This document shows, in pieces, positions 29,543-62,793 of a stretch of 64,000 bases of DNA. Within the stretch, counting starts at the first letter, position 1. Every line of letters begins with the position of its first letter. This DNA comes from an uncultured Pseudomonadota bacterium (GTDB lineage Bacteria > Oederibacteriota > Muellerivitia > Muellerivitales > Muellerivitaceae): NCBI GenBank assembly GCA_963836235.1, contig CAWIIP010000002.1, positions 139,454 to 203,453 of the forward strand. Reading direction: 5' to 3'. The position numbers and the translations under genes were made by a program. Under the pieces are notes generated by a model. The model was not told where the DNA came from, ran no database searches, and saw only the letters and a program-made list of their open reading frames with translations.

Positions 29543-30118
29543 TCATTCAGGCTGGCCTTTTCCGAAAGGAACCGCCACAACGGTCCTTTTACTTGATTGG
29601 AGAACCCAACCGATTCCTGACTTGTAATAACGGCCCAACCACTGTCGGATAAGGCCTGGGCTAACTCCGAGCCGTTTTCCGACCTCGTTTACTTTCATCC
29701 CCTTCGCAAGCCAGGAAAGCGCCTGTAACTTTTCCTTCACCCAGGGCCGATCCTCTTTTTCCAAGAAAGATTTAATCTCTTGTGTGTTCATATTTCGTTC
29801 TGTGCGAGCGTTGAAATAACCTTTTTGGTTCCAAATCTTTGACAGCGCATGGAAAGGAATCTTTTGTTCAAGGAGCTTCGCTATTGATGAAAAAGAACCA
29901 TCAAAAAATACCGAAAGTTTCAGCAGGACATGAACATCCCGTGATCCTTCCCGCTCCCATCGCTTCCATTCCTCAAGGGTGCATCCACAACTAGCGGCGG
30001 CCTGTTTTGGGGATAGGTTCTTTTTCAGCCGAAGTTCCTGGATCACTTCCCCGATTTTTCGTTCAAACTCTTGGCGGGTCAATATCCCCTTGTCTGGCTT
30101 CTTTGATGATGATTTCAC
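29543..30118 (-). CDS. HTH(XRE)-HTH protein resembling the N-terminal DNA-binding module of IS630-family transposases (no DDE domain)
   Basis: 191 aa; N-terminal XRE-like HTH (IGEVIQELRLKKNLSPKQAAASCGCTLEEWKRWE), C-terminal HTH (KLQALSWLAKGMKVNEVGKRLGVSPGLIRQWLGRYYKSGIGW). Paralog at 45162..45770. Confidence 0.5.
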   Translation of the reverse strand: MKSSSKKPDKGILTRQEFERKIGEVIQELRLKKNLSPKQAAASCGCTLEEWKRWEREGSRDVHVLLKLSVFFDGSFSSIAKLLEQKIPFHALSKIWNQKGYFNARTERNMNTQEIKSFLEKEDRPWVKEKLQALSWLAKGMKVNEVGKRLGVSPGLIRQWLGRYYKSGIGWVLQSSKRTVVAVPFGKGQPE

Positions 30119-33030: not shown

Positions 33031-36000
33031 TTACCGCAGGACCAGCAATTTGAGGATATTCCGGCCCCGGTTGGTTTGCACCACCACATAGTAAAGGCCG
33101 TTGGCCAAGGGCGTTCCCCACTCATCGGCCAAAGGAATGGGCACGCTGACCCCCGGTTGGACATTGTAATAAGTTAAATCCGCTACCTTCCGGAAGGCGG
33201 TCGTGAAGATCTCGATGCTCACGTTCGATTCAAACGTCAACCCCGGATTGAGCTGAGCCACTCCCCCCGTGGAAACGGGGTTGGGATAAAGCACTGGTTT
33301 GGCCGGAGGGGCCGGGGTCCGGGTAGCCGTGGCCGTCGGCGGTGGCGTTAAAGTTTTAGTGGCCGTTGGGGTGGCCGACGCACTGGGGGTATAAGTCGGC
33401 GTGGCGGCGGCGATGGTGACCGTGGCGCCTGGAACGGGCAATCCGGTAAAGAGAAGGGCCTGGCCGTTGCTTCCCGTGGCGTCCGTGGCGCTGAAGGAAT
33501 AGTTCCCCGCCGGTGAAGAGGAGGAGAAGTTCGCGGTGACTTCGTAGGTCACTGCTCCATTGGCCCCCGGAATGGCGCTGTTGAAGCTGAGGGTGGCGTC
33601 CGGCCCGCTGAAGGCGGCGGTGGCGATAAGCGTTCCATTGGCTGATAAATTGATCGATGTGATCCCGGTGGGAGGGGTTCCCGTCTCGGAGAGGGTGATA
33701 CTGGTGAGCGTCACCGGATTGCCGCTGGGATTGTTCACCTGGATCTGTTGGATGGGTACCCCGGAAGCCCCCGGAATTTGGATGGAGTTACCCGGCGGGC
33801 TCAACCCTTGCGAGGCCGAAACCGTCACCGGCGTGGGGCTGAAAGTGGGAGTCACCGACGCCGTTGAAGTGGCGGTTTGAGTTGGCGAAGCCGAAGGCGT
33901 AGCCGTGGCGGTAGCTGTGTTTGCCGGCGTTAGCGTCCGCGTGAGGGTAGGGGTCGCCGTAGTCGAAGCCGTGGCGGTGGAAGTGGGGGTCAAGGTACTG
34001 GTCCTGGTCGGGGTTCCGGTGTTGACCAGCGTCTCGGTAGCCGTGCCCGTAGGAGTACTTGACGGCGTAGCCGTCAATGTATTGGTCGGCGTAACCGTCG
34101 GCGTAGTGGTGGCCGTTGCCGTCGAGGTGCCGGTGGGGCTGTTGGTGGCCGTCCCGGTCGGGGTCAACGAAGAGGTGGTAGTTGGGCTGTTGCTGGCGGT
34201 ATTCGTGGCCGTAACGGTGGCGGTTGAGGTCGGGGTTCCGGTGTTGACCAGCGTCGCGGTAGCCGTGCCCGTAGGAGTACTTGACGGCGTAGCCGTCAAT
34301 GTATTGGCCGGCGTAACCGTCGGCGTATGGGTGGCCGTTGCCGTCGAGGTGCCGGTGGGGCTGTTGGTGGCTGTCCCGGTCGGGGTCAATGGGGAGGTGG
34401 CAGTTGGGCTGTTGCTGGCGGTATTCGTGGTGGTTGCCGTGGCGGTACGGGTTGCGGTGGATGTCGCGGTTAAAGTCGCCGTATTGGGCAGGGTAGTCGT
34501 GGGCGTAGGGCTAAGGGTTGGGGAGAAGGTGGAAGTAGGGCTGTTGCTGGGTGTGTTCGTGGCCGTTTTGGTGGCCGTGCCCGTAGGAGTACTTGATGGC
34601 GTAGCCGTCAATGTATTCGTCGCGGTGCTGGCAGCCGTATTCGTTGGGCTGTTCATCGGGGTATTCGTGGACGTTGGAGTGGGGGTCGAAGTCGATGTAT
34701 TCGTGGGGCTGTTCGTTGCGGTCTTGGTGGGCGTATTGGTCACGGTGGGTGTGGCGGTATTCGTGGCCGTGGGGGTGGCCGTATGGCTGGGTGTGGCGGT
34801 GGGGGTATTCGTGGGAGTGTTGGTCCGGCTAAAGGTGGGGGTGCTGGAGGCGGTGCTGGTCGCCGTACTGGTGGGAGTGCTGGTTTTCGTGGGGGTAACC
34901 GTGGCCGTGGCGGTTTTTGTGGCGGTCGCCGTCGCGGTCGCGGTCGGCGTGGATGTTTTGGTGAAGGACGCCGTGGCGGTGGGGGTCGCCGTGGCGCCGC
35001 TGGAGGAGCAACCTGGATGGGTAAGTCCCTTCAGCCAGCCATAGACCTGTTGGCCTTCATAAGACGTCAGCACCCAGCCGCTGCCGGTGGAAACCGGGGC
35101 GGACAGAGTTGAGGACCAGGCCGAAAGCAGGAGAGGCGTCGCCGAGATATCCATGTCCCAAGCCATGCCCCCATAGACGTAATTCTTGTCGTTTGTGCCG
35201 TTCATGAAGGTAATCACGCTGTTCACGAAAGTGCCGCCGTCGGTGGTATTGGCCGAATTCCCGAATTCCTCGATGAACACCGGGCCGTAGGTGAGGGCCG
35301 TATCGATGTTGGACTCCCAACCCGCCGGGGTGTTGGTGCCCTTGTTGTTGTAGATATGGGCCGAGTAGACGATGCCGTTGCCTCCGGCCTTATCCACCAC
35401 AGGACTCATGCCCACGTAATAATAGGAATACTGCTGGCCGCCGACGATGCAGATGTTTTCGGCGTTGGTGCCGCTGGCCAGGGTGCTGCCGGCGCTGGCG
35501 GTAGTGCCCCGGATGGTGTTCACGATGGACTGAAGGCCGGGCGTGGTAAAGCCCTCGGAGGCCGTGCCTCCGTTTAACCAGACGGTCCAGGAAGTTGTGT
35601 AGGGCTCGTTGAAGGTGTCGAAGAGCACGGAGGGGTTGTTGGCGTAACGGGCGGCGACGCTGGCCCAGAAAACCAGGCTGTTCTCATCAGGCATGGAGTA
35701 TTGCCCGGTGGCCGAGCCCGTGGGCCCGTCGCCGGACCATTGCAGGTCCAGGTCGCAATAGATGTTGTTGGCGTTGCAGTAGGCCACGAGGGAGTCCACG
35801 AAGCTTTGGTATCCCGATTGGCTGGTGGAACCCCTGGAGCTTTGCGCGTTGCCATCCCACCAGTCCTGGTCCAGGGGGATGCGGACGCAATTGACATTCC
35901 AATATTTGACCGCCTCCTGCAGCATTGTCAGGACCCCATTGCCGCCGGCCGGATTGTCCCCTGGCGGTACGTCCCATTCCAAAGAATCCAGATTCACCCC

Positions 36001-36144
36001 GGTCAGGCGCACGGTGCAGCCGCCGCTGGCGGTGACGATTTCGTTTCCGGAAACCTTAAGCAGGGGAGGAGCGGCTTGCGCGGGAGTTGGACCGAAAAAA
36101 GTGGAACCCAAAAGCACAAAAAGCGAAAGAAAGAAAAAGTTCAT
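33031..36144 (-). CDS. Glycoside hydrolase family 5 (cellulase-like) with ~450-aa Thr/Pro/Ala-rich linker and T9SS C-terminal sorting domain
   Basis: Start at [24 protein letters not shown] (signal peptide); GH5 NEP motif ([11 protein letters not shown]); long TPT/TAT low-complexity linker; C-terminus [10 protein letters not shown]...[13 protein letters not shown]...[22 protein letters not shown] matches T9SS/FlgD-Ig-like CTD. The antisense 379-aa VAVAV ORF is spurious. Confidence 0.8.
33990..34440. repeat. Intragenic tandem repeat, 2 x 222 bp (74 aa) ~95% identical, plus degenerate further copies, in the Thr-rich linker of the GH5 gene
   Basis: Landmark ccgtcaatgt at 34071 and 34293; ggttccggtgttgaccagcgtc at 34012 and 34234 (period 222). 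Confidence 0.8.
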
Positions 36145-36900
36145 TTCGCCCCGGGACGTTTTAAGCCGGGAACCAAAGAACGTTTTCGTTTTGAAAAATA
36201 AGTTTTGTGGAGACCTGTTCAAAGTGTCACCCGATACACTGGTTAAACCGGAATTTCCCAGATGACCTTCTCTGAAAACATTGCCGGGTAATTTGTTTCT
36301 CATTATATCGCCCCCCCCCCCCCCGCTTCTTCCATCCGAATCCGGAATTTTCCGTCCTGGGCCACTGAAATAAGCCCCAGGAAAAGGTTTCTGTGCCCAA
36401 AAAAGCTGAAATTGACCTTCTGGAAAGCCAATTCTCGTTGTGAGCGCACACCTATCCTGCGGTAGTCGCTCGGGTTGAAGCCTTGATGCCTTCCTGCGGT
36501 TATCGCAGTACTGGCGCTCGCGGCCTTACCATTGCCAGTAGCCGTATCCGATTGAGGATTTCAGCAAACAGGCGTCGGGAAACCATCACCTCCGCCATCT
36601 GGAAAATAACGTACCGCGAATGACGGATGACATTAGCCCCGATCTTGATGAGTTTTTCCCTCAAGGTCGTTAGCGACCAATGTTTCACCAGTTCTGGCAG
36701 TGCCAGTCGGCGCAGGAAGTTGCCCAGATTGTAGGCCAGGGCGAATAGTTGTAAGCGCACTTGGTTGTCCGCGAAGTCGTGGCAGCTTAGTCTTGTCCAC
36801 TTCATCGCATACTTTCCCTCTTTGATCCACTGCTCAGCCGTGCCTCTTCCGTTGTAGAATTTCACCACCTGGGGTGCCGGTCGTCGCATGTTCGTTACGA
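35985..36900. repeat. Segmental duplication copy A (916 bp): 5' end/upstream region of GH5 gene plus right end of IS1380-family element; identical to 60757..61724 except a 53-nt indel and poly-C length
   Basis: Direct comparison of the two regions; identity starts at aatccagattcacccc and ends at catgttcgttacga. Poly-C tract is C14 here (36311..36324) versus C13 in copy B. Confidence 0.9.
36248..36900 (-). mobile_element. One-ended remnant of IS1380-family element (right inverted repeat + 3' noncoding region + last 129 codons of transposase)
   Basis: Identical to the 3' part of the complete element at 61073..62778. IRR CCGGAATTTCCCAGATGA begins at 36248. Transposase fragment 36500..36889 is a pseudogene. 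Identity stops abruptly at 36900. Confidence 0.85.
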
Positions 36901-37823
36901 AGAAATCCCATTAGTGTTGATTTACCTGTTCCTCTACCTCCGATAATGGCATTTAACCAAGGGTTAAATTTTGCTGTTAGTGGTACTCCATTACCCATGT
37001 ACTTAGCGCTTTTTACCTCAATTTGATCAATTATTATTGGACTGTGGACATTTGGATCGTCCTGGGTATCTGTAGATCGTTTTATCGAATGAATACCATC
37101 AAACAAACCTAGCCGTAAACCCTCCAGACTTGGGTATGTCATTTTCACCCACGTAAATCTTCGATTTATTTCCGAAGGTTTGTGAGAATCCGATCCAATA
37201 ATTTCCGAGAGAACCCTTTTTGAAGAATGATCAGTAAATATTTGTGGTCTTTGGGAACCAATATCTTTAAATTCGACGGCCGTCAAACCTTTTGAACCTA
37301 GAGCCTGTTCTAATGCTTTCCCTGTAAGTTTAAAAAGACCTGCATGGGAATCATCGACATGCGCGGGAATTGGAATTCCACCTGCGGAAACGACTACTTC
37401 TACAACCTTTTCAAATGTTAGATCAGTAACGGCATCAGATTCACCAGCAGTTCCCTTATATCCAACCGCTCCTCTTAAAGCATCCAAATCGGCCGTTGTT
37501 TTGTTTGGGTCCAAAATAACCAATAAATGAATGCCGGGATTTACACTTATTTCCATTCCCGGGAATAAAACTAATGGTTTATAACCCACGGGCTTTTCTT
37601 GATCTAAAACTGCCAAGGCATTTTTTAAAGGATCAACCCAAGCTCCAGAATTGTGGTCTGTAATAACAACACCATCAAAGCCACCACGCATAAAATCAAG
37701 AATCCAATCTCTTGGGGAACGAGCTTTTAAACTTGGATCACCCTTTCCATAGTCAATGGAGGCGGGAGTATGCGTGTGAAAATCGAATTTCCACCAGCGA
37801 GAACCTGGGAATTCTAAACTCAT
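36834..37823 (-). pseudogene. PHP-domain + SMC-like ABC ATPase protein, third gene of type III R-M operon, truncated by the IS remnant just after the Walker A motif
   Basis: N-terminus WWKFDFHTHTPASIDYGKG and later DHNSG, HVDDSH motifs = PHP phosphoesterase fold. C-terminus WLNAIIGGRGTGKSTLMGF = N-terminal Walker A of SMC/RecF/OLD-type ABC ATPases. Authentic sequence ends at 36901; last ~20 codons are read from IS DNA. Start ATG overlaps res stop (TAATG). Confidence 0.7.
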
Positions 37824-40489
37824 TAAGACTCACCAAAAAGTCTGATTAATTGTTTAAATGATTCCGGTTTGTGTTCATCCCACGCTTCTTGCCGTATATA
37901 TAACGGTTGGTAGGTTTTACCGCGTTCGGCTTTGGTAGCGTCTTCGCACCATTGAATAAGACGGCCCCACTTTTCCGGGTCGTCCAAGTCTTCTCTACCC
38001 TTCGTCTCAATGATCCAAACGTTTTTCTGATCCTGTTTTACGATGAAATCTGGGTAGTAGTTAGAAATGAACCCATCGGCGGTTCGGTATTCGATCTTGA
38101 AAAAGGTACTTTGGGAATTCTTAATGAACGAGATTATGTCGTCACAATCGTCAAGGAAGAAAGCAAACTCAAGCTCAAGGTGGCTATCGCCGATGATCTT
38201 ATTAAAAATTGATTTTTTAGGAATCAAATATTCCTGGTTTTTAACCACAAAGGGGCGAGTCTTGCTCAATTTAATGTAATCCTTAACCTCGGTAGCCCCC
38301 TTGTCTTGGACAGTTAGATCATTAATGGCCTTTTTCAGCGTCTCCCTTAAGGTCTTATTTACTTCCGGTTCAGAAAGGTTCCTAAGAGTATTAAAGTCAT
38401 CCAAGGGGACTTTTTGGCCAAAGAGGTACTTTTCAGTGAACTCCATTAGCTTTCCAAAAAGAATGTCTTTTCCGCCCACCAACCGAAGGTCTCGCATTAT
38501 TGAGGTGGTAAAGTAGGAAATGGCGTTCTGAAAATTCGGCTCGGAATCGGTGTCTAATTCGGTAACGTGGCTGATTTCATCCTTGTCGATATCCTTAAAG
38601 ACGATCTGCCTTTTCTCTTCCTCGGTGTACTGCTTTAGGGAAACAGGTTTAAACTTTAGGTTCCCCACTTTGATGTCGTTTAAGTTCTTATATTCCCTAT
38701 AAATCCTGGGCGCTAATACAGGCAGAACAATATCCAAGCTTTCTATGTCTTTTTTGGGATTTTCCCGATCTACTTCAATCACTAAAGGGGATCTAGGGTT
38801 TTTATCCCCCATAGGGGTGTACTCGAACTCAACACCTTCGATCTTGATGGATTCCACAAATTCAATGAATTTAGAGGTCCCGATAACGCTTACTTTTTCT
38901 GATACGTCTTCACCCCGGAACATCCGCCTAAGGCCACGACCTAGCGTTTGTTCAGGTAATATTTTGGATTCGTATTGCCTTAACCCAACAATGGAAACAA
39001 CGTTTTGCACATCCCACCCCTCTTTTAATACCATTACCGAAACGACTGCTTTATAGGGGCTTTCCATGCTGTCAATTTCTCTGCTGGCTTTACGAAGTAT
39101 GTCCAAATCTTCTTTGTTTTTGTTGGTATTGCTTTCGGAGATTTCGCCGTTGTTTTTAGTATGAATAACCAACACCGCGTCTTTTAATTCTTTAAAAGTA
39201 GCTTCCAAATATTCGGCTACTTCATCGCAATTTTTGGTGTCATCGGTCATTATGAAAAGAACCGATTTCTTGTTAAGTTTGATCAATTCATCGTAAACCT
39301 TTTTCCATTCATAAACCCCAAGATGTAAATAATCCCGAAATTGTTCACAGAATTTAGAACTTTTTCTCTCCTGTAATTTTGCCCTAGAAGCCTCATCAGG
39401 GAGAACGGGTGTTTTGACGACTTGTTGGCGAATGGCTTCCACAAGGGGATAATCGCTGATCGTTTGGACAAAGATCCCACCCCCTTCATGTTTTGGTGTG
39501 GCCGTAACGTCAAACTGGGCAGAAAGTTTCCCACCCTTTATCTTCAATTTATTGGAAATTTCCTCGATAGCCTTAAACCCAGCTTGGGTATTGCTGTGAA
39601 TATGATGGGCCTCGTCGTTGAGGATTACTAAATCGGAAACCTCTCGAACGATCTTCCCTAAATCAGCTTGGGAATCGTTCGTTTTGCCGGTTGGTTTAGT
39701 CCCCAGAAAATAATCCTCTGTGTTTTCATCCTCTAAAGAAGGATTAGTCTCATTGAGGTGGATACGGTGGATATTGGTTAAGAAAATGTTCCCAGTATTG
39801 GAAATGTTCCCAATCTCGTCCTGAATATGTAGAGTCACTTGAAAATCACTTCTCCAATCCTGGCCCTCGTAACCATTCTCCGGTAGAACAGGGTCCTCGT
39901 TGAATATCCTAAGACCATCAAAGTCCACCCGAAGCCGATCCAAAACGATGATGTTCGGAGCCGTAATCAAAAAATTGGTGGAAAGATCAGAATCGGGCTC
40001 ATATCGCTTGTGGAAGTAGGACCAGGCCACCAACAAACTCATTACCTTGGTTTTTCCTGCCCCGGTGGCGAGCTTCATGACGTAACGGGTCCAGGTCTCT
40101 TCAAACATCCCCTTGCTTACTTGTTCGGAAGAGTCGTAACGAAGCAAGGAATAAGGATCGTGCGCCTTTTCTATCTCATAAAGCCAAATAGCCGATTCGA
40201 CTGCTTCTCTTTGGGCGAAGTAATATTGAAATTGACGGGGATCCCCATTGGGACCCGGGACGAAATGTTCTGTGTTGAACCAATAATTCAGGAGGGTCCT
40301 GGTCGTATGGCACGCACCTTCATAACCCCGTTTTCGCCAACTTTTCACACCTTCCCTAATCTTATGAACAAGAGGGGGTAAAAGAAGGGTAAAAGTATCG
40401 CCAAGGACAGTCTGTTCTCCTGGATACCAACGAATTGCAGGATCGAGAATGACATGGGGATCGCGAGGGAAATCAGGTGAAAGGGGCAT
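37823..40489 (-). CDS. res: Type III restriction-modification system restriction subunit (Res), SF2 helicase-nuclease
   Basis: 888 aa; Walker A KLATGAGKTKV, DEAH box (ILNDEAHHIHS), helicase C-terminal motifs, then endonuclease region. Start overlaps mod stop (TAATG). Confidence 0.85.
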   Translation of the reverse strand: MPLSPDFPRDPHVILDPAIRWYPGEQTVLGDTFTLLLPPLVHKIREGVKSWRKRGYEGACHTTRTLLNYWFNTEHFVPGPNGDPRQFQYYFAQREAVESAIWLYEIEKAHDPYSLLRYDSSEQVSKGMFEETWTRYVMKLATGAGKTKVMSLLVAWSYFHKRYEPDSDLSTNFLITAPNIIVLDRLRVDFDGLRIFNEDPVLPENGYEGQDWRSDFQVTLHIQDEIGNISNTGNIFLTNIHRIHLNETNPSLEDENTEDYFLGTKPTGKTNDSQADLGKIVREVSDLVILNDEAHHIHSNTQAGFKAIEEISNKLKIKGGKLSAQFDVTATPKHEGGGIFVQTISDYPLVEAIRQQVVKTPVLPDEASRAKLQERKSSKFCEQFRDYLHLGVYEWKKVYDELIKLNKKSVLFIMTDDTKNCDEVAEYLEATFKELKDAVLVIHTKNNGEISESNTNKNKEDLDILRKASREIDSMESPYKAVVSVMVLKEGWDVQNVVSIVGLRQYESKILPEQTLGRGLRRMFRGEDVSEKVSVIGTSKFIEFVESIKIEGVEFEYTPMGDKNPRSPLVIEVDRENPKKDIESLDIVLPVLAPRIYREYKNLNDIKVGNLKFKPVSLKQYTEEEKRQIVFKDIDKDEISHVTELDTDSEPNFQNAISYFTTSIMRDLRLVGGKDILFGKLMEFTEKYLFGQKVPLDDFNTLRNLSEPEVNKTLRETLKKAINDLTVQDKGATEVKDYIKLSKTRPFVVKNQEYLIPKKSIFNKIIGDSHLELEFAFFLDDCDDIISFIKNSQSTFFKIEYRTADGFISNYYPDFIVKQDQKNVWIIETKGREDLDDPEKWGRLIQWCEDATKAERGKTYQPLYIRQEAWDEHKPESFKQLIRLFGES

Positions 40490-42672
40490 TAAACTTTCAC
40501 CTCAACTACTTTGGTTGTGTCGTTTCCAAAAATGTCGATCACTTTGACTGCAATTTTATATTTACCCTTAGAAGGATACTCGTACTCGGCGCTTTCCATC
40601 TCGAGGGAGCGATCTTTATCAGTGCGGAAAGTCTGCCATTGGTTCTCAAAAATAAACCCTCCGGTCCAAACATCTCTTTCTTTTCCCTTTTCGTCCACCT
40701 GCTTTATTATCTCCTTACGGCTCTCATAGTCGAAGTCCACGGCCCAATAGTCGATCCAGTCTGTCCATTTCTTTGTGAGCACTTCCCTTTTTACAATGCC
40801 CTTTTTGTCCTTGGTGATCTTCACGACCTGGCCGTTCTCAACGGTTACTTTAGAACCGCCTGGTTTAAGGGATTCGGAAACAGCTTCCACGTCATCCTGG
40901 GTGTAGAAAACACCAAAATTTTTGAGGACAACGGTGGCTTTCATCCCTTTTATTTTGGGCAACACCTCACCATAAGCCGCGTCAAAGAATTTAACCTGAT
41001 TCTTTTCAACAGCACGGCGGTCAAAAACATCTTTAGGAATGTACTTCAGGGACAAGTTAATTCCGTGACGGTTAGCTTCATCTTTATAGGTTTCGATTAG
41101 GCCCATTTCAAATTCAAACCCAAGAACATCAACCTTTGTAAGCTTTAACTTTTTACAGGACTCAATTATTTCCTGAACCTGGCTAATGGTAACAGGTGCA
41201 TCCAAGGGGCCAACGAAAACAGCTACACCGCCTCTTTTACCATGAAATGGAGCTAGCTGTTGAACACGCTCTCCTTTGTAAGCTTGCAAGATAAGCTTTA
41301 GATAATCCTCCTCCTTCTGAAGGGATTGTTTCTTTCGTTCCTTCTCTGGTAGGTTTGGGTTAATTCCTACAAAGTATTGACGTTCATATTTGCCTAAGTT
41401 GAGAATTTCAAAACTACGATAGGGTTTTGTATCCTTTTTTAGTTCTCGTTGTGCCCCTATAAGGCGTTTACGAGTCGTATGAATTGAGAAACGACCTAGG
41501 TCACACCCGATCCATTTGCGGCCAAGTTTTTCAGCAACTGAAAGAGTCGTCCCGGAACCACAAAAAAAATCAGCAACCAGATCAGTGTCATTTGAGGAGG
41601 CTTTAATAATTCGTTCTAGTAATGTTTCAGGTTTTTGGGTCGCATAATTAGTTCTTTCCTCGGCCATTGAGTTAACTTCTGAAATATCAGTCCAAATATC
41701 ACCCAATGATTCCCCTTTTTCTTCATCTAAATATCTTATTAATCTTTTATTCCCACTTGAGGTTACCCAAATTTTGTTTTGTTTTTCAAACTGTTTAATT
41801 GAATCTTCCGAATAATCTCCCAAATCACAATCACGAAATAATCTTCCTTTTTTATCAGGTCGAAATTTTGTTTTAATAAAATTTTCGTCGTAGGGTTTAT
41901 AAGCACCGTTCCAAGTCCATTTCTCGGACTTGGAATAAAATAGTATAGAGTCAGAATTCCTAGCATATTGGCCAGATGTCGCTTTAGCTCCCCGGACTGG
42001 CTGCCTTCGCCATCTAATTTCATTTCGAAAATTTTCTAACCCAAATAATTCCTGCATTACCAGACGAATTACACTATTCAACCTCCAATCACAATGAACG
42101 TAAATAGAGCCATCGTTTGCCAATAAATCCTTCATTAATTTTACCCGCTCGTACATCATTGATAAATATGAGTCGGCTCCTCTACCCCATGTGTCTCTAT
42201 AGGCCACGTCTTCTATTACACTTGGCTCTTTTTCTAACAGTCCTTTGTCGCCAATCTCTAAGTTAATAGAAAAATCTGATCCAATATCAAAAGGAGGGTC
42301 GATGTAAATGAGTTTCAAACCACCCACTTCATCGATCTCTTGGCGCAAAGGCCCATTTTTTAGAGATGAAAGGACTAGTTTATTGTCACCCCAAATAAGT
42401 TTATTACTCCAACCACTAGCCTGACGGCCGCTTTGGAGATCTAAAGAAAAGAGATCCGCCACCTGGCCAGTTTTTTCTGACCTTGGTTCGTCGATTTGTT
42501 CGATGACTTGGAACGGAAGAACTGCATTCGTGACTTCTTGGGACTTCCCTTGCCACACAAGCTCAACTTCAGGAGCATCGGCAAAGAGAGAAAGGCGGTA
42601 TTTGGGTGGAAGAGGTTCTCCCCGGTCGACCATGGCTTTGATTTGTTCTTTTTCTTGATCGGAAAGGTACAC
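40489..42672 (-). CDS. mod: Type III restriction-modification system methyltransferase (Mod), N6-adenine beta-class, with ~150-aa C-terminal extension
   Basis: 727 aa; motif IV IYIDPPFDIGSDF precedes motif I DFFCGSGTTLSVAEKLGRKWIGCDL (beta-class order typical of Mod). Confidence 0.85.
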   Translation of the reverse strand: MYLSDQEKEQIKAMVDRGEPLPPKYRLSLFADAPEVELVWQGKSQEVTNAVLPFQVIEQIDEPRSEKTGQVADLFSLDLQSGRQASGWSNKLIWGDNKLVLSSLKNGPLRQEIDEVGGLKLIYIDPPFDIGSDFSINLEIGDKGLLEKEPSVIEDVAYRDTWGRGADSYLSMMYERVKLMKDLLANDGSIYVHCDWRLNSVIRLVMQELFGLENFRNEIRWRRQPVRGAKATSGQYARNSDSILFYSKSEKWTWNGAYKPYDENFIKTKFRPDKKGRLFRDCDLGDYSEDSIKQFEKQNKIWVTSSGNKRLIRYLDEEKGESLGDIWTDISEVNSMAEERTNYATQKPETLLERIIKASSNDTDLVADFFCGSGTTLSVAEKLGRKWIGCDLGRFSIHTTRKRLIGAQRELKKDTKPYRSFEILNLGKYERQYFVGINPNLPEKERKKQSLQKEEDYLKLILQAYKGERVQQLAPFHGKRGGVAVFVGPLDAPVTISQVQEIIESCKKLKLTKVDVLGFEFEMGLIETYKDEANRHGINLSLKYIPKDVFDRRAVEKNQVKFFDAAYGEVLPKIKGMKATVVLKNFGVFYTQDDVEAVSESLKPGGSKVTVENGQVVKITKDKKGIVKREVLTKKWTDWIDYWAVDFDYESRKEIIKQVDEKGKERDVWTGGFIFENQWQTFRTDKDRSLEMESAEYEYPSKGKYKIAVKVIDIFGNDTTKVVEVKV

Positions 42673-42877: not shown

Positions 42878-43894
42878 TTAAGTACCGGATTTAAAAGCGC
42901 TTGGGTTTATGTTTACCAACGAAAGATGCCCACCGTCGGAACCTTCATTTTTAGAAAAACCGGTGGGTTGAGGGGAAAAAATACACTCAGCGGCCTTGGT
43001 GAGAACAACGTCTCTATTAGCCCCTTCTTTTCCGGCTTTTACTAAAGCTTCATAAGTTGCTAAAGCATTTTGCCTGTGACGGTCAATTACGGAATTGTGT
43101 CTATGTGCTGAAAAATTCTTTACCGAAAGAATTAAAAAATAAGAAATTGTAATAAAAATTAAAAATTTACTTACAGAAAGTTGAATGGAATCAAAAACCG
43201 TAACAGGGACAAAAAATGGAATTTTATGAATAAATAGTGTCGAAACGGCATAAACCAAAAGGCAAACAGTTAACCAAATAGTTGTTGTTAACCATTTAGA
43301 TGCTTCTTCCGCGTGTTTATCAGCTTCGTTTTTAAAATATATGGCTTGTTGAGAAACACCTTGTTCCGCTGCAACTTTTCTAACAGCTTCTAAAACTTTA
43401 TCTGCTTCCAATTTCCTTTTTTCAAGTTCTGTCTGAAGTTCTCCAGCCCTATCCGTAACATCCTGAATTAATGCACGCGCCTCACGTTCAAGACGACCAA
43501 AATCGGTTGATTTTCTAACAGAATACGAAATGAATGGATGTAATGTTTTGAATGAGTTCCCATAGCCAGCTTCTAAGGCCTGGACAGAACTATCTCTTGT
43601 TTGCGTGGTAAGTCCCGGGGCCGCCTTTAAAATAGTTTCAAGCAAACGAAAATCATTGTTTGAAACATTTTTAATATTTGTCAAGATTTCATCCGGGAAC
43701 GCGTCCAAAACCTCTAAAGGTATTTGTTTATATAAATCAATAATCCTCGTTGCTGGTTCAACCGCATTGGTAAAATTAATTGCTGTCCCGAACTCCTGAA
43801 CCCTAGGTAATGAATTTACATCGAAATTTTGGAGTCTTACCAAAGAACCTTTTACTTCCTCTATTAACTTATTAGTTGTTTCAGAAATCGGCAT
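42878..43894 (-). CDS. Membrane protein of unknown function (cytoplasmic N-domain + 2 TM hairpin + C-tail), immediately upstream of mod
   Basis: 338 aa; two hydrophobic helices (WLTTTIWLTVCLLVYAVSTLF; FLIFITISYFLILSVKNF). Confidence 0.5.
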   Translation of the reverse strand: MPISETTNKLIEEVKGSLVRLQNFDVNSLPRVQEFGTAINFTNAVEPATRIIDLYKQIPLEVLDAFPDEILTNIKNVSNNDFRLLETILKAAPGLTTQTRDSSVQALEAGYGNSFKTLHPFISYSVRKSTDFGRLEREARALIQDVTDRAGELQTELEKRKLEADKVLEAVRKVAAEQGVSQQAIYFKNEADKHAEEASKWLTTTIWLTVCLLVYAVSTLFIHKIPFFVPVTVFDSIQLSVSKFLIFITISYFLILSVKNFSAHRHNSVIDRHRQNALATYEALVKAGKEGANRDVVLTKAAECIFSPQPTGFSKNEGSDGGHLSLVNINPSAFKSGT

Positions 43895-45161: not shown

Positions 45162-45770
45162 TCAATTATTAGGCGTTTGATGAGGTTTAATTCTGGTCCT
45201 GGCCCGGTCCGCTCTCGGAGGCTGATTGTGTTTGCGGGAGTTCAGCGCCCACCCGATTCCTGTCTTATAATACCGCCACAGCCAGTGCTGGATGAGACCG
45301 CCTCTCCTCCCTAGCTTTTTTGCCACATCATTAGTTTTCATCCCTTCCGCCAGGCAGGCAAGCGCCTGCAACTTTTCCCTCACCCACGGTCGTTCCTCTT
45401 TTGCCAAAAAGGACTTAATCTCCTGCAAGTTCATATTCCGCACAAGGCGAGGATGGAAAAATCCCTTGTCTGTCCAATTCTTTGATAGCGCATTGAGAGG
45501 GACCTTTCGTTCAAGGATCCTCGTTATTGAAGAAAAGGAACCGGCAAGAAATACCGAGAGTTTCAATAGCACGTGAACAGATTGGACTCCTTCTTGCTCC
45601 CATCGTCCCCATTCCTCAAGCGTGCATCCACAATTGTCGGCAGCTTGTTCTTGGGTAAGGTTCTTTTCCAAGCGGAGTTCCCTGATTACTTCCCCGGTTT
45701 TTCGCTGAACATCTTTCCGTGTGAGCTTTACCCTCGCGGTGAGCGATTTTTGGGAGTCGAATCCTTTCAT
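45162..45770 (-). CDS. HTH(XRE)-HTH protein, diverged paralog of 29543..30118
   Basis: 202 aa; same architecture and ~60% aa identity (TGEVIRELRLEKNLTQEQAADNCGCTLEEWGRWEQEG ... KLQALACLAEGMKTNDVAKKLG). Confidence 0.5.
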   Translation of the reverse strand: MKGFDSQKSLTARVKLTRKDVQRKTGEVIRELRLEKNLTQEQAADNCGCTLEEWGRWEQEGVQSVHVLLKLSVFLAGSFSSITRILERKVPLNALSKNWTDKGFFHPRLVRNMNLQEIKSFLAKEERPWVREKLQALACLAEGMKTNDVAKKLGRRGGLIQHWLWRYYKTGIGWALNSRKHNQPPRADRARTRIKPHQTPNN

Positions 45771-60756: not shown

Positions 60757-61724
60757 AATCCAGATTCACCCCGGTCAGGCGCACGGTGCAGCCGCCGCTG
60801 GCGGTGACGATTTCGTTTCCGGAAACCTTAAGCAGGGGAGGAGCGGCTTGCGCGGGAGTTGGACCGAAAAAAGTGGAACCCAAAAGCACAAAAAGCGAAA
60901 GAAAGAAAAAGTTCATTTCGCCCCGGGACGTTTTAAGCCGGGAACCAAAGAACGTTTTCGTTTTGAAAAATAAGTTTTGTGGAGACCTGTTCAAAGTGTC
61001 ACCCGATACACTGGTTAAAGGTTGCGGAACAATTGGCAACAAAACTCGAAATGTTTCATCGCTTCTCATGAACCGGAATTTCCCAGATGACCTTCTCTGA
61101 AAACATTGCCGGGTAATTTGTTTCTCATTATATCGCCCCCCCCCCCCCGCTTCTTCCATCCGAATCCGGAATTTTCCGTCCTGGGCCACTGAAATAAGCC
61201 CCAGGAAAAGGTTTCTGTGCCCAAAAAAGCTGAAATTGACCTTCTGGAAAGCCAATTCTCGTTGTGAGCGCACACCTATCCTGCGGTAGTCGCTCGGGTT
61301 GAAGCCTTGATGCCTTCCTGCGGTTATCGCAGTACTGGCGCTCGCGGCCTTACCATTGCCAGTAGCCGTATCCGATTGAGGATTTCAGCAAACAGGCGTC
61401 GGGAAACCATCACCTCCGCCATCTGGAAAATAACGTACCGCGAATGACGGATGACATTAGCCCCGATCTTGATGAGTTTTTCCCTCAAGGTCGTTAGCGA
61501 CCAATGTTTCACCAGTTCTGGCAGTGCCAGTCGGCGCAGGAAGTTGCCCAGATTGTAGGCCAGGGCGAATAGTTGTAAGCGCACTTGGTTGTCCGCGAAG
61601 TCGTGGCAGCTTAGTCTTGTCCACTTCATCGCATACTTTCCCTCTTTGATCCACTGCTCAGCCGTGCCTCTTCCGTTGTAGAATTTCACCACCTGGGGTG
61701 CCGGTCGTCGCATGTTCGTTACGA
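60757..61724. repeat. Segmental duplication copy B (968 bp), containing a 5' pseudogene fragment of the GH5 gene (60757..60969, minus strand)
   Basis: Identical to 35985..36900 apart from a 53-nt insertion (61020..61072) and C13 vs C14 tract. Includes the cellulase ATG (60969..60967) and first 71 codons fused to unrelated sequence. Confidence 0.9.
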
Positions 61725-62778
61725 TGAAACCCACCTTTGGGAACAATTCCCCGTTGTGATGTTCGATCTTCGCCACCACGCGGCGGGGTTTGTCCCAGCT
61801 GACGGCTTGGTATTGGAAGCTGTGAAACCGGACAACCGGCTTGTGGGAGGGGCGGCCCACGGGACGGGTTAAAAATGGCTCGATTTCCCGTTGGAGTATG
61901 GCATTGGCAGGTTGGCGGATCGCGTAAAGATATCCTTCGTCTTCTAGGTATTCGTATAGTTCCTGACGGGCGAAAGCCGCGTCACCCCGGAAAAACCGGC
62001 TGATGGAAAGACCCCGGTAGCGGGCAACTACCGGTTCAAGAACCGAACGCCATTCGTGGGCACTGGCCACATTGCCGTTGCGCAACATAGCCCGTTCCAA
62101 ATCGCCGAACTGGTTGAAGCAAAACAGGGGATGGTAACAGGTACAGCCAAAGTAACCGTTGTACAAGGAACCTTCCTGATCCCCGTAGGTCTCGCTCACT
62201 GAGCTATCCATGTCGAGGATGATCTGTTGTATGGGCTTTTTCTCATGGACTCCATCGATCCATTGGCCCGATAAGTCAATTAAGCCGGTCAAATTCTTCG
62301 ACTGGGTGAGGACCTCCGTCTCGAAACGACCCATCTGGCTGGTGGAGGCGGCCTGTTTTTCCCTGGCCCGTCCTCCGATCACATGCCGCATCGCAGGATC
62401 GACACTCAGGCGTTCTGCGTCGTTGGTATCCTCATAACCGGCCAAGCGGCTGAATACCGACTGGCGAAGAAGCGCCGTCATCGTGTGTTGCGTATTCTTA
62501 CCGGTCCGCCGATCCCAAAGGATGTTTTCTGTTCTGTCAGTCAAACCAAAAGCTTCGTCGAGTTCGCGATAGGGAATCAACCCGCCATCGGAAGTGACCT
62601 TCGCACCATGGAACTCCAACTTGAGGCCAGGATCAAAAACCACCCGAAGAGCGTCTTTTCCGCCTTCACCCATTGCATTTCCCCCTCTCATGTTCCCCAA
62701 CACGAAGAAAAACCTTTGTTTATATGGCCAAACGTTGTCTTATTATACTCGAAAGGAAATTCCATCTGGGAAATCCGG
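61073..62778 (-). mobile_element. Complete IS1380-family insertion sequence (~1.7 kb)
   Basis: Imperfect terminal inverted repeats CCGGAATTTCCCAGATGA (61073..) and CCATCTGGGAAATCCGG (..62778); single 459-aa transposase. No matching 4-bp target duplication found. ~250-bp 3' noncoding region contains the C13 tract. Confidence 0.8.
61324..62703 (-). CDS. IS1380-family DDE transposase
   Basis: N-terminus LKLEFHGAKVTSDGGLIPYRELDEAFGLTD...LLRQSVFSRLAGYEDTNDAERLSVDPAM matches the IS1380-family N-terminus; C-terminal LSCHDFADNQVRLQLFALAYNL. Confidence 0.85.
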   Translation of the reverse strand: MLGNMRGGNAMGEGGKDALRVVFDPGLKLEFHGAKVTSDGGLIPYRELDEAFGLTDRTENILWDRRTGKNTQHTMTALLRQSVFSRLAGYEDTNDAERLSVDPAMRHVIGGRAREKQAASTSQMGRFETEVLTQSKNLTGLIDLSGQWIDGVHEKKPIQQIILDMDSSVSETYGDQEGSLYNGYFGCTCYHPLFCFNQFGDLERAMLRNGNVASAHEWRSVLEPVVARYRGLSISRFFRGDAAFARQELYEYLEDEGYLYAIRQPANAILQREIEPFLTRPVGRPSHKPVVRFHSFQYQAVSWDKPRRVVAKIEHHNGELFPKVGFIVTNMRRPAPQVVKFYNGRGTAEQWIKEGKYAMKWTRLSCHDFADNQVRLQLFALAYNLGNFLRRLALPELVKHWSLTTLREKLIKIGANVIRHSRYVIFQMAEVMVSRRLFAEILNRIRLLAMVRPRAPVLR

Positions 62779-62793
62779 GTTAAGGGTTACATT

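Follow-up and report, generated by a model that had tools for sequence, protein, structure and literature searches.

A Type III-like restriction-modification operon followed by a truncated TrlF/Ppl-family gene in an uncultured bacterium

In EcoP15I-type enzymes the Mod subunit methylates host sites, and the Res subunit works together with Mod on unmethylated DNA. Type III enzymes are characterized by an ATP-dependent cleavage which requires two unmethylated sites in inverse orientation, and by the hemimethylation of an asymmetric site. Accessory genes may accompany restriction-modification (R-M) systems: PrrC and RloC are found in type I R-M loci. We describe here a Type III-like R-M operon with a third gene, a remnant of the TrlF/Ppl family, which is found in a stretch of 64,000 nucleotides from an uncultured bacterium (contig CAWIIP010000002.1, positions 139,454 to 203,453; this whole stretch is the window). 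The closest described relative of the third gene is Ppl, an anti-phage system which consists of one gene, whose product has PHP and ATPase domains (PMC11482910; PMC12904381 likewise treats it as a single-gene system). The summary given in PMC12904381 presents Ppl as a 3'-5' exonuclease of single-stranded DNA, which is inhibited by nucleoside triphosphates (NTPs) and activated by 3'-OH DNA ends; the primary paper on this mechanism, as cited in PMC13434339, is Xu et al., Mol Cell 2026. Genes embedded in other methylation-based systems have also been described. "Backup effectors" have been proposed in BREX (bacteriophage exclusion) loci; they include Schlafen RNases, described from such loci in at least 1,017 taxa (PMC12839542). 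Schlatpase genes that stand alone have been reported in R-M operons (bioRxiv 10.64898/2026.05.29.728809).

The best explanation of the locus, which we consider probable, is that it contains an intact Type III-like R-M pair and, as cargo, an independent TrlF/Ppl-family defence gene of which only a dead remnant is left. The three genes are the following:

40489..42672, minus strand: mod, Type III-like beta-class DNA methyltransferase, 727 amino acids, apparently intact
37823..40489, minus strand: res, Type III-like restriction subunit, 888 amino acids, apparently intact
36834..37823, minus strand: third open reading frame (ORF), 329 amino acids, chimeric, directly after res

These genes form a single operon. 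Both junctions, mod/res at 40489 and res/third ORF at 37823, have the sequence TAATG, in which the stop and start codons share one nucleotide. This chaining had been pointed out in a previous reading of the window made from its letters alone (the sequence-only reading), and the overlaps support the three-gene operon which was then proposed. Since 14 of 59 related loci also have this overlap between mod and res, it is a conserved property of the operon and is not due to chance. The start codon of mod is GTG, with GAGGAG in front of it, and res is preceded by GAGGTG; both are purine runs similar to a Shine-Dalgarno sequence. A scan for promoters and terminators gave nothing better than shuffled sequence.

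Mod and Res are both apparently intact, since they may be aligned with their relatives over their full length, and all catalytic motifs are kept. The sequence-only reading had reached the same opinion. Mod matches the Pfam profile N6_N4_Mtase (1e-44) and the PADLOC profile MTase_III (4e-118), and its sequence matches in PDB include the EcoP15I Mod subunit (4zcf_A), Helicobacter pylori Mod (6k0w) and Mbo45V. Its motifs appear in the beta-class order, DPPF at amino acids 125-128 (42289-42300) and then FCGSG, an FxGxG motif, at amino acids 370-374 (41551-41565). It aligns full length with 59 relatives. Res has the invariant motifs of a superfamily 2 (SF2) helicase core and of a C-terminal nuclease (strings TGAGKT, DEAHH, TATP, QTLGRGLRR and PDFIV...ETK), located as follows:

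40049-40066, minus strand: Res SF2 motif, Walker A
39602-39616, minus strand: Res SF2 motif, DEAH
38924-38950, minus strand: Res SF2 motif VI
38000-38053, minus strand: Res C-terminal PD-(D/E)xK nuclease motif

Profile matches of Res include Pfam ResIII (2e-14), a weak match to RE_endonuc and PADLOC REase_III (3e-21). Its best NCBIfam model is the BPTD_3080-family restriction endonuclease (2.5e-86, 290 bits against a cut-off of 800), and the Type III endonuclease model PRK15483 is only weakly matched (6e-5). We have found 80 metagenomic relatives of Res, with 55-62% identity, which align with it end to end. The pair resembles EcoP15I-type systems in several respects: mod comes before res, Mod belongs to the beta class, and Res combines an SF2 helicase core with a C-terminal PD-(D/E)xK nuclease. 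On the other hand, the window Res is too divergent for a PDB sequence search, which gave no match, and half of the relatives in this clade hold cargo genes between mod and res.

Profile and alignment evidence assigns the third gene to the TrlF/Ppl family, a named anti-phage family, as the first 308 codons of a protein of about 930 amino acids. It is thus not the undescribed architecture that the sequence-only reading had taken it for. The native part of this ORF contains these features:

36900..37823, minus strand: TrlF/Ppl-family remnant, codons 1-308, with a complete PHP domain and only the P-loop of the ABC ATPase
37770-37778, minus strand: HxH motif of the PHP domain, amino acids 16-18
36918-36941, minus strand: P-loop (Walker A) GGRGTGKS, amino acids 295-302, invariant in the family alignment

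The top-scoring profile for this fragment is the NCBIfam model NF045780, TrlF family AAA-like ATPase (1.5e-67, 229 bits against a cut-off of 350), where it covers positions 2-330 of 944 with no gap in coverage. It also matches positions 1-298 of 882 in the NCBIfam Ppl model NF042955 (1.3e-59, 202 bits against a cut-off of 1000), and residues 7-309 correspond to positions 4-305 of 894 in the PADLOC Ppl profile (1.9e-52). Scores are below the TrlF and Ppl cut-offs because the gene is truncated. In 80 species-representative genomes, homologous genes have a median length of about 930 amino acids. Full-length relatives were taken from genome loci; a search for protein homologues returned only sequences of up to 533 amino acids. 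Nine of these relatives reach 583-647 bits on the TrlF profile and align end to end with Ppl at 530-625 bits. When the gene of locus L089, discussed below, is included, the range on TrlF is 473-647 bits, always above the cut-off of 350. Since they fall under the strict equivalog cut-off of Ppl, 1000 bits, these relatives represent a sister clade of Ppl. Our literature search revealed neither where the name TrlF comes from nor a functional study which uses it.

The N-terminal PHP domain suggested by the sequence-only reading is upheld by the predicted fold and by the NCBIfam and PADLOC profiles, but not by Pfam: no Pfam profile, including that of PHP, matches the third ORF at E<=0.01. An AlphaFold2 model of this ORF, with 38 homologues in the alignment, has a mean confidence (predicted local distance difference test, pLDDT) of 88.9, and its top 19 Foldseek hits in PDB are all PHP proteins, such as EndoQ (1.5e-9), TM0559, RNase AM and the PHP domain of Pol III alpha. 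The conserved PHP residues are H16, H18, D56/H57, E91, H99, H155, D212 and H214. A PDB sequence search with the fragment gave no match, and no Ppl-like structure could be reached by sequence. As for the C-terminal ATPase of ABC/SMC type, also suggested, its Walker A motif is present in the window ORF, directly after the PHP domain, but the ABC body (where a coiled region, a signature motif and Walker B would be expected) appears only in full-length relatives, whose last 600 residues or so match AAA_21, SMC_N and AAA_15, with weak matches to Rad50.

The third gene had also been compared with PrrC and RloC, and with the OLD and Gabija systems. This parallel is not borne out. The fragment has no match to an anticodon-nuclease or TOPRIM domain in Pfam, PADLOC or NCBIfam, its nuclease domain is predicted to be PHP, and we have found no sequence relation of the window gene to PrrC/RloC or to OLD/TOPRIM proteins. 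The full-length relatives match GajA, AriA, PtuA and LmuB solely through shared ABC P-loop regions. The closest likeness is to E. coli Ppl, in which an NTPase with a Walker A motif likewise comes after an N-terminal PHP nuclease domain. However, the window copy is only the first third of such a protein, and two thirds of the TrlF family protein described by NF045780 are gone from it. As homology ends at codon 308 and the ATPase body is gone, the window gene should be considered a remnant of a family member, not a functional member.

The truncated end adjoins a fragment of an insertion sequence (IS) of the IS1380 family:

36834..36899, minus strand: tail of the chimeric ORF, 21 codons RNEHATTGTPGGEILQRKRHG and stop, transposase DNA read out of frame
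36246..36900, minus strand: IS1380-family fragment, 655 bp, with its right inverted repeat at 36246-36264 and the last 129 transposase codons at 36500-36889
61071..62781, minus strand: full IS1380-family copy, 1711 bp, outside the operon, with a 459-amino acid transposase at 61324-62703

The third gene is truncated at its 3' end, where a deletion has joined codon 308 to the middle of the transposase gene. The gene had been called "decapitated", but it is the N-terminus that is kept and the C-terminal part that is lost. Homology to full-length relatives (tblastn) ends at nucleotide 36897, with a loss of about 620 C-terminal codons, and no remaining C-terminal TrlF sequence is found by tblastn anywhere in the 64-kb window. 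The IS1380 remnant recognized by the sequence-only reading is confirmed. In two profile libraries the fragment corresponds to positions 318-433 of 435 and 321-417 of 419. The full copy lies about 24 kb away, its 19-nucleotide inverted repeats agree at 17 of 19 positions, and its transposase scores 378 bits on the NCBIfam IS1380 model (cut-off 180). DNA from 36900 to 36312 is 100% identical to 61724-61136 of this full copy. As the joint is inside both the TrlF and the transposase genes, it must come from a deletion, not from the insertion of an IS alone. The event was apparently recent, since the IS copies are perfectly identical and the kept codons show no decay. An inversion mediated by the IS, which might hide the missing C-terminal part near the second copy, was excluded by tblastn.

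Two identical IS copies in the same 64-kb window, together with a duplicated flank of about 261 bp, are typical sites for misjoins. The junction at 36900 might then be an assembly artefact of a repeated IS, and the real genome would have an intact TrlF gene. Nevertheless, the join is internal to the IS, and its microhomology to the TrlF side is limited to a few bases; assemblers do not usually bridge a joint of this kind. C-terminal TrlF sequence is missing both next to the other IS copy and in the rest of the window. We find an artefact hardly credible. An exact-protein look-up of the 329-amino acid ORF returned no contig. The sequence-only reading had proposed to look for an uninterrupted copy in related genomes. 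No near-identical one was found; the nearest relatives of the window Mod, Res and TrlF are only 53-62% identical.

Some side observations concern these IS copies. The flank of about 261 bp is duplicated beside the full copy (35985-36900 compared with 60757-61724). It corresponds to the promoter region and the first 55 codons, approximately, of a gene for a protein of 1090 amino acids, and the full copy has an extra 53 bp between the duplicated flank and the inverted repeat. This suggests co-mobilization of adjacent DNA in the style of ISEcp1, or recombination. A poly-C tract just inside the right end of the IS differs by one C between the copies, which are otherwise identical (36303-36330 compared with 61127-61150); in copy A it is upstream of a glycosidase-like gene. 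The 1090-amino acid secreted protein (33031-36303, minus strand, GC 0.61) has very long repeats rich in Pro and Thr, and showed no match in NCBIfam at E<=1e-5. As its longest ORF begins within the end of the IS, translation probably starts instead at the Met of MNFFFLSLF..., with a signal peptide.

Intact members of the TrlF family show what the window gene may have looked like. We have surveyed 80 species-representative loci (L001-L080). A characteristic feature is the presence of a partner gene directly downstream of TrlF and on the same strand, which codes for a protein of about 420 amino acids with the Pfam domains SLFN_AlbA_2 and HATPase_c_4, a Schlafen+GHKL combination. This protein corresponds to the "Schlatpase" supradomain (bioRxiv 10.64898/2026.05.29.728809), and PADLOC covers it only as the N-terminal part of its "pAgo" model. 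The two genes usually overlap by 4-11 nucleotides (for example L067, 9986-13875; L003, 9980-14030; L024, 9914-14015). The partner is found directly downstream in at least 42 of the 80 loci; among the 15 relatives closest to the window fragment, 13 have it. About 13 further loci probably have it too, with an offset shifted by the choice of ORF start or by a split TrlF gene.

Enterobacterial TrlF copies lack this partner. We have inspected two such neighbourhoods, in one E. coli chromosome and one Citrobacter plasmid, and both contain a lone TrlF gene in a mobile-element hotspot; RefSeq names these copies "TrlF family AAA-like ATPase". Ppl is likewise a single gene, unlike most close relatives of the window copy. 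The TrlF-Schlatpase pairing was not found in the Ppl, bacterial Schlafen or BREX papers that could be searched. TrlF is split or truncated in 7 of the 80 loci (L010, L027, L028, L048, L054, L058 and L080), even on long contigs. The high number of such genes would be explained if members of this family are often inactivated. Many N-terminal TrlF fragments are also present on megabase contigs (proteins P0004, P0041, P0045 and P0051). In a tblastn search, 1,153 plasmid records had TrlF-family genes; 835 of these are predicted to be conjugative, mostly from Escherichia or Klebsiella. A Hafnia-like TrlF allele is found in only 17 of 5,426 complete E. coli genomes.

From these comparisons a mechanism may be proposed. 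By analogy with EcoP15I-type enzymes, Mod would methylate host sites, and Res, with its SF2 ATPase and PD-(D/E)xK nuclease, would act with Mod to cut unmethylated incoming DNA. The whole TrlF/Ppl protein would have been an N-terminal PHP exonuclease fused to an ABC ATPase similar to Rad50/SMC, and, if it worked like E. coli Ppl, a fall in NTP pools would lead it to degrade phage DNA, starting at 3'-OH ends. Its gene would have been a cargo gene translationally coupled behind res, probably followed at one time by a Schlafen+GHKL partner. A recent deletion would then have fused codon 308 to the middle of the IS1380-family transposase gene, with loss of the ATPase body and of all that followed it. 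The R-M pair alone would still be expected to work, and the chimeric ORF of 329 amino acids would be a non-functional remnant.

The sequence-only reading had considered the third gene a dedicated accessory of the R-M system. Intact homologues linked to R-M genes do exist, as it had anticipated, and may be seen in some of the 80 TrlF loci, but a dedicated role does not fit the overall distribution: the linkage between TrlF and R-M genes is facultative. Of the 80 TrlF loci, 26 have a DNA methyltransferase gene at a distance of up to 10 kb, and the other 54 have none so near. BREX genes (PglZ, BrxL, BrxC/DUF6079) surround many of the methyltransferase-linked TrlF loci. Close relatives of the window Mod and Res flank TrlF in L032, L045, L060, L067 and L072, in varied orders, such as mod-TrlF-Schlatpase-res in L067 and mod-TrlF-res in L072. 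The nearest relatives of the window TrlF (L001-L003 and L007) are not linked to this R-M family.

TrlF and Schlatpase also appear together inside operons of BREX type (L003, L010, L011, L024, L040, L059, L068 and L076). In these operons the pair is found right after the gene for a PglX-like methyltransferase or for an N6_N4 methyltransferase of 930 amino acids, and before PglZ or BrxL. Its start often overlaps the methyltransferase stop.

We have also carried out the reverse survey, with 80 loci which contain relatives of the window Res (L081-L160). In 59 of these, mod is upstream of res. The genes downstream of res were counted in the 55 loci with at least 900 nucleotides past its end, and TrlF follows res in only one of them, L089. 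This locus has an intact mod-res-TrlF operon, whose full-length TrlF (473 bits) begins 2 nucleotides past res. Other genes are frequent in these operons. In 30 of the 59 loci, mod and res are split by 0.4-2.9 kb of hypervariable cargo (for example L126, 3251-6155; L088, 6129-7820; L145, 5419-6858). This cargo includes KilA-N/Bro-N, Schlatpase-like, NYN, HepT, DUF3800, PD-(D/E)XK, GIY-YIG, Fic, HerA+SIR2, AAA_21, PIN and UDG genes. An OLD-type ATPase-TOPRIM gene and other ATPase genes are found downstream of res in several loci. In this clade of Type III-like R-M systems the operon serves as a carrier, where cargo has a defined slot, and the occupation of the same positions by many unrelated genes is what should be expected of a permissive insertion slot.

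Several observations weigh against the explanation of the third gene as dead and independent cargo. In the first place, its 308 kept codons contain no stops, all the invariant PHP residues are present and the start is coupled to res, so a product could still form. Together with the intact frame of the whole ORF and the confident PHP fold model, this might mean that the truncated protein of 329 amino acids is a functional stand-alone PHP nuclease, freed of an inhibitory ATPase and retained for defence or DNA processing. We consider this highly improbable. The complete identity of the IS copies indicates that the event is recent, so that an intact frame needs no selection, and the tail is out-of-frame IS sequence. 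In addition, pLDDT falls below 50 at residues 292-305, where the P-loop stub and the last beta-strands are poorly modelled, and disrupted TrlF genes, as we have seen, are common elsewhere.

A second group of observations concerns the methyltransferase neighbours. In 12 of the 80 TrlF loci a methyltransferase gene is immediately upstream on the same strand, and in 10 of these the genes overlap or are at most 40 nucleotides apart. The neighbours belong to three unrelated types: the Type III Mod described here, PglX-like proteins (identified by Pfam and jackhmmer) and the 930-amino acid N6_N4 methyltransferases in BREX-3-like clusters. The R-M-linked TrlF genes correspond to at least five separate lineages in a neighbour-joining tree built from 308 shared columns, without support values. 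The presence of so many lineages beside this R-M family could reflect functional cooperation, and not just co-travel. Finally, it is by its relatives only that we judge that the window copy probably had a Schlafen+GHKL partner before the deletion.

The tight placement after three kinds of methyltransferase and the independent TrlF lineages, in varied gene orders, would favour a functional three-part system. According to this alternative, the TrlF PHP-ATPase would serve methylation-based defence as a back-up or accessory effector, together with its Schlafen-ATPase partner; it might fire when R-M or BREX is inhibited, or chew the DNA ends which these systems make. The window would once have held such a coupled system. 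The intact operon of L089, with its gap of 2 nucleotides, also speaks for it. The proposal that BREX loci contain embedded "backup effectors", Schlafen RNases among them (PMC12839542), agrees with it, as does the sensing of 3'-OH DNA ends by Ppl, reported in the summary in PMC12904381. We regard this three-part system as possible but unlikely. TrlF has no methyltransferase gene within 10 kb in most loci, it is alone in both enterobacterial neighbourhoods inspected, Ppl is a single-gene system (PMC11482910), 54 of the 55 Res relatives have no downstream TrlF, and many unrelated cargo genes occupy the same operon positions.

The described auxiliary effectors of BREX and R-M loci are similar to the window gene in two ways: they are extra defence genes of nuclease type, co-transcribed in a methylation-based operon, and the Schlafen+GHKL partner of TrlF is the module described in PMC12839542 and bioRxiv 10.64898/2026.05.29.728809. 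On the other hand, neither of these two papers mentions a PHP-ABC ATPase, and the word PHP is absent from both. A further suggestion is that the environmental TrlF clade and Schlatpase constitute an undescribed two-gene defence module plugged into methylation-based immunity, of which the window would be a decayed example. We think that this is quite unlikely. The module is repeatedly inserted immediately behind the methyltransferase gene in Type III R-M, BREX-1 and BREX-3-like operons; if the suggestion were true, it could act as a second layer which fires when restriction is blocked or degrades the DNA ends made by restriction.

As to the genomic setting, we take the operon to be part of a defence islet of low GC content which was acquired horizontally. 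It occupies a variable hotspot; the chromosomal segment around it is otherwise conserved. GC is 0.37-0.43 over 36.9-43.9 kb, compared with 0.52-0.61 on both flanks, and the window is chromosomal, as SecA and LigA are present; its contig has 2.05 Mb. Contigs from other samples (L163, L164 and L165) share a block at about 44.7-48.9 kb with 98-100% identity. Identity is lost at about 44700, within a gene for an S1-P1 nuclease, and the defence cargo beyond this point is different: L163 has an unrelated Type III R-M (its Mod is 25% and its Res 23% identical to those of the window), while L164 has a homologue of the 338-amino acid protein listed below and then a PIF1-like helicase. Such differences in cargo indicate that the island is one allele of a variable defence hotspot. 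A mobile element possibly carries the conserved block and its hotspot. We found neither a tRNA gene nor direct repeats at the flanks which would mark the island.

One more gene of low GC content is found between mod and the conserved block:

42878..43894, minus strand: predicted membrane protein, 338 amino acids, GC 0.37, weak match to DUF6161, upstream of mod

Its homologue in L164 (4576-5586) has 78% amino acid identity and is in the same hotspot. Another homologue is found in L022 (5481-6509), about 3.3 kb upstream of a BREX-embedded TrlF. We considered this gene as a fourth member of the operon and rejected it, as no homologue adjoins mod in the 80 related R-M loci. The conserved block itself contains small ORFs, DUF6876 and a helix-turn-helix protein of 202 amino acids, followed by the S1-P1 nuclease. 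The region 29605-30072 has about 75% DNA identity to the region of the helix-turn-helix gene (45162-45770), so the window has a second, diverged copy of part of this block.

In summary, the locus should be annotated as an intact Type III-like R-M, a TrlF/Ppl-family pseudogene and an IS1380 fragment, not as a new tripartite restriction system. Each of its components belongs to a known kind, and embedded auxiliary effectors in R-M and BREX loci have already been described. So far as we have searched, what is unreported comes from the related loci and not from the window: the pairing of TrlF with Schlatpase, which is conserved, and the preference of this pair for a place behind a methyltransferase gene. 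Two leads follow from our results. Most TrlF/Ppl-like genes outside enterobacteria have a Schlafen-ATPase partner, a connection which is not made in the papers on Ppl, Schlafen and BREX effectors that we searched. In addition, the operons of this R-M clade and those of BREX may be regarded as carriers, with cargo slots after the methyltransferase gene and between mod and res. In defence islands, the placement of such genes may be merely permissive, or it may reflect a layered immunity.

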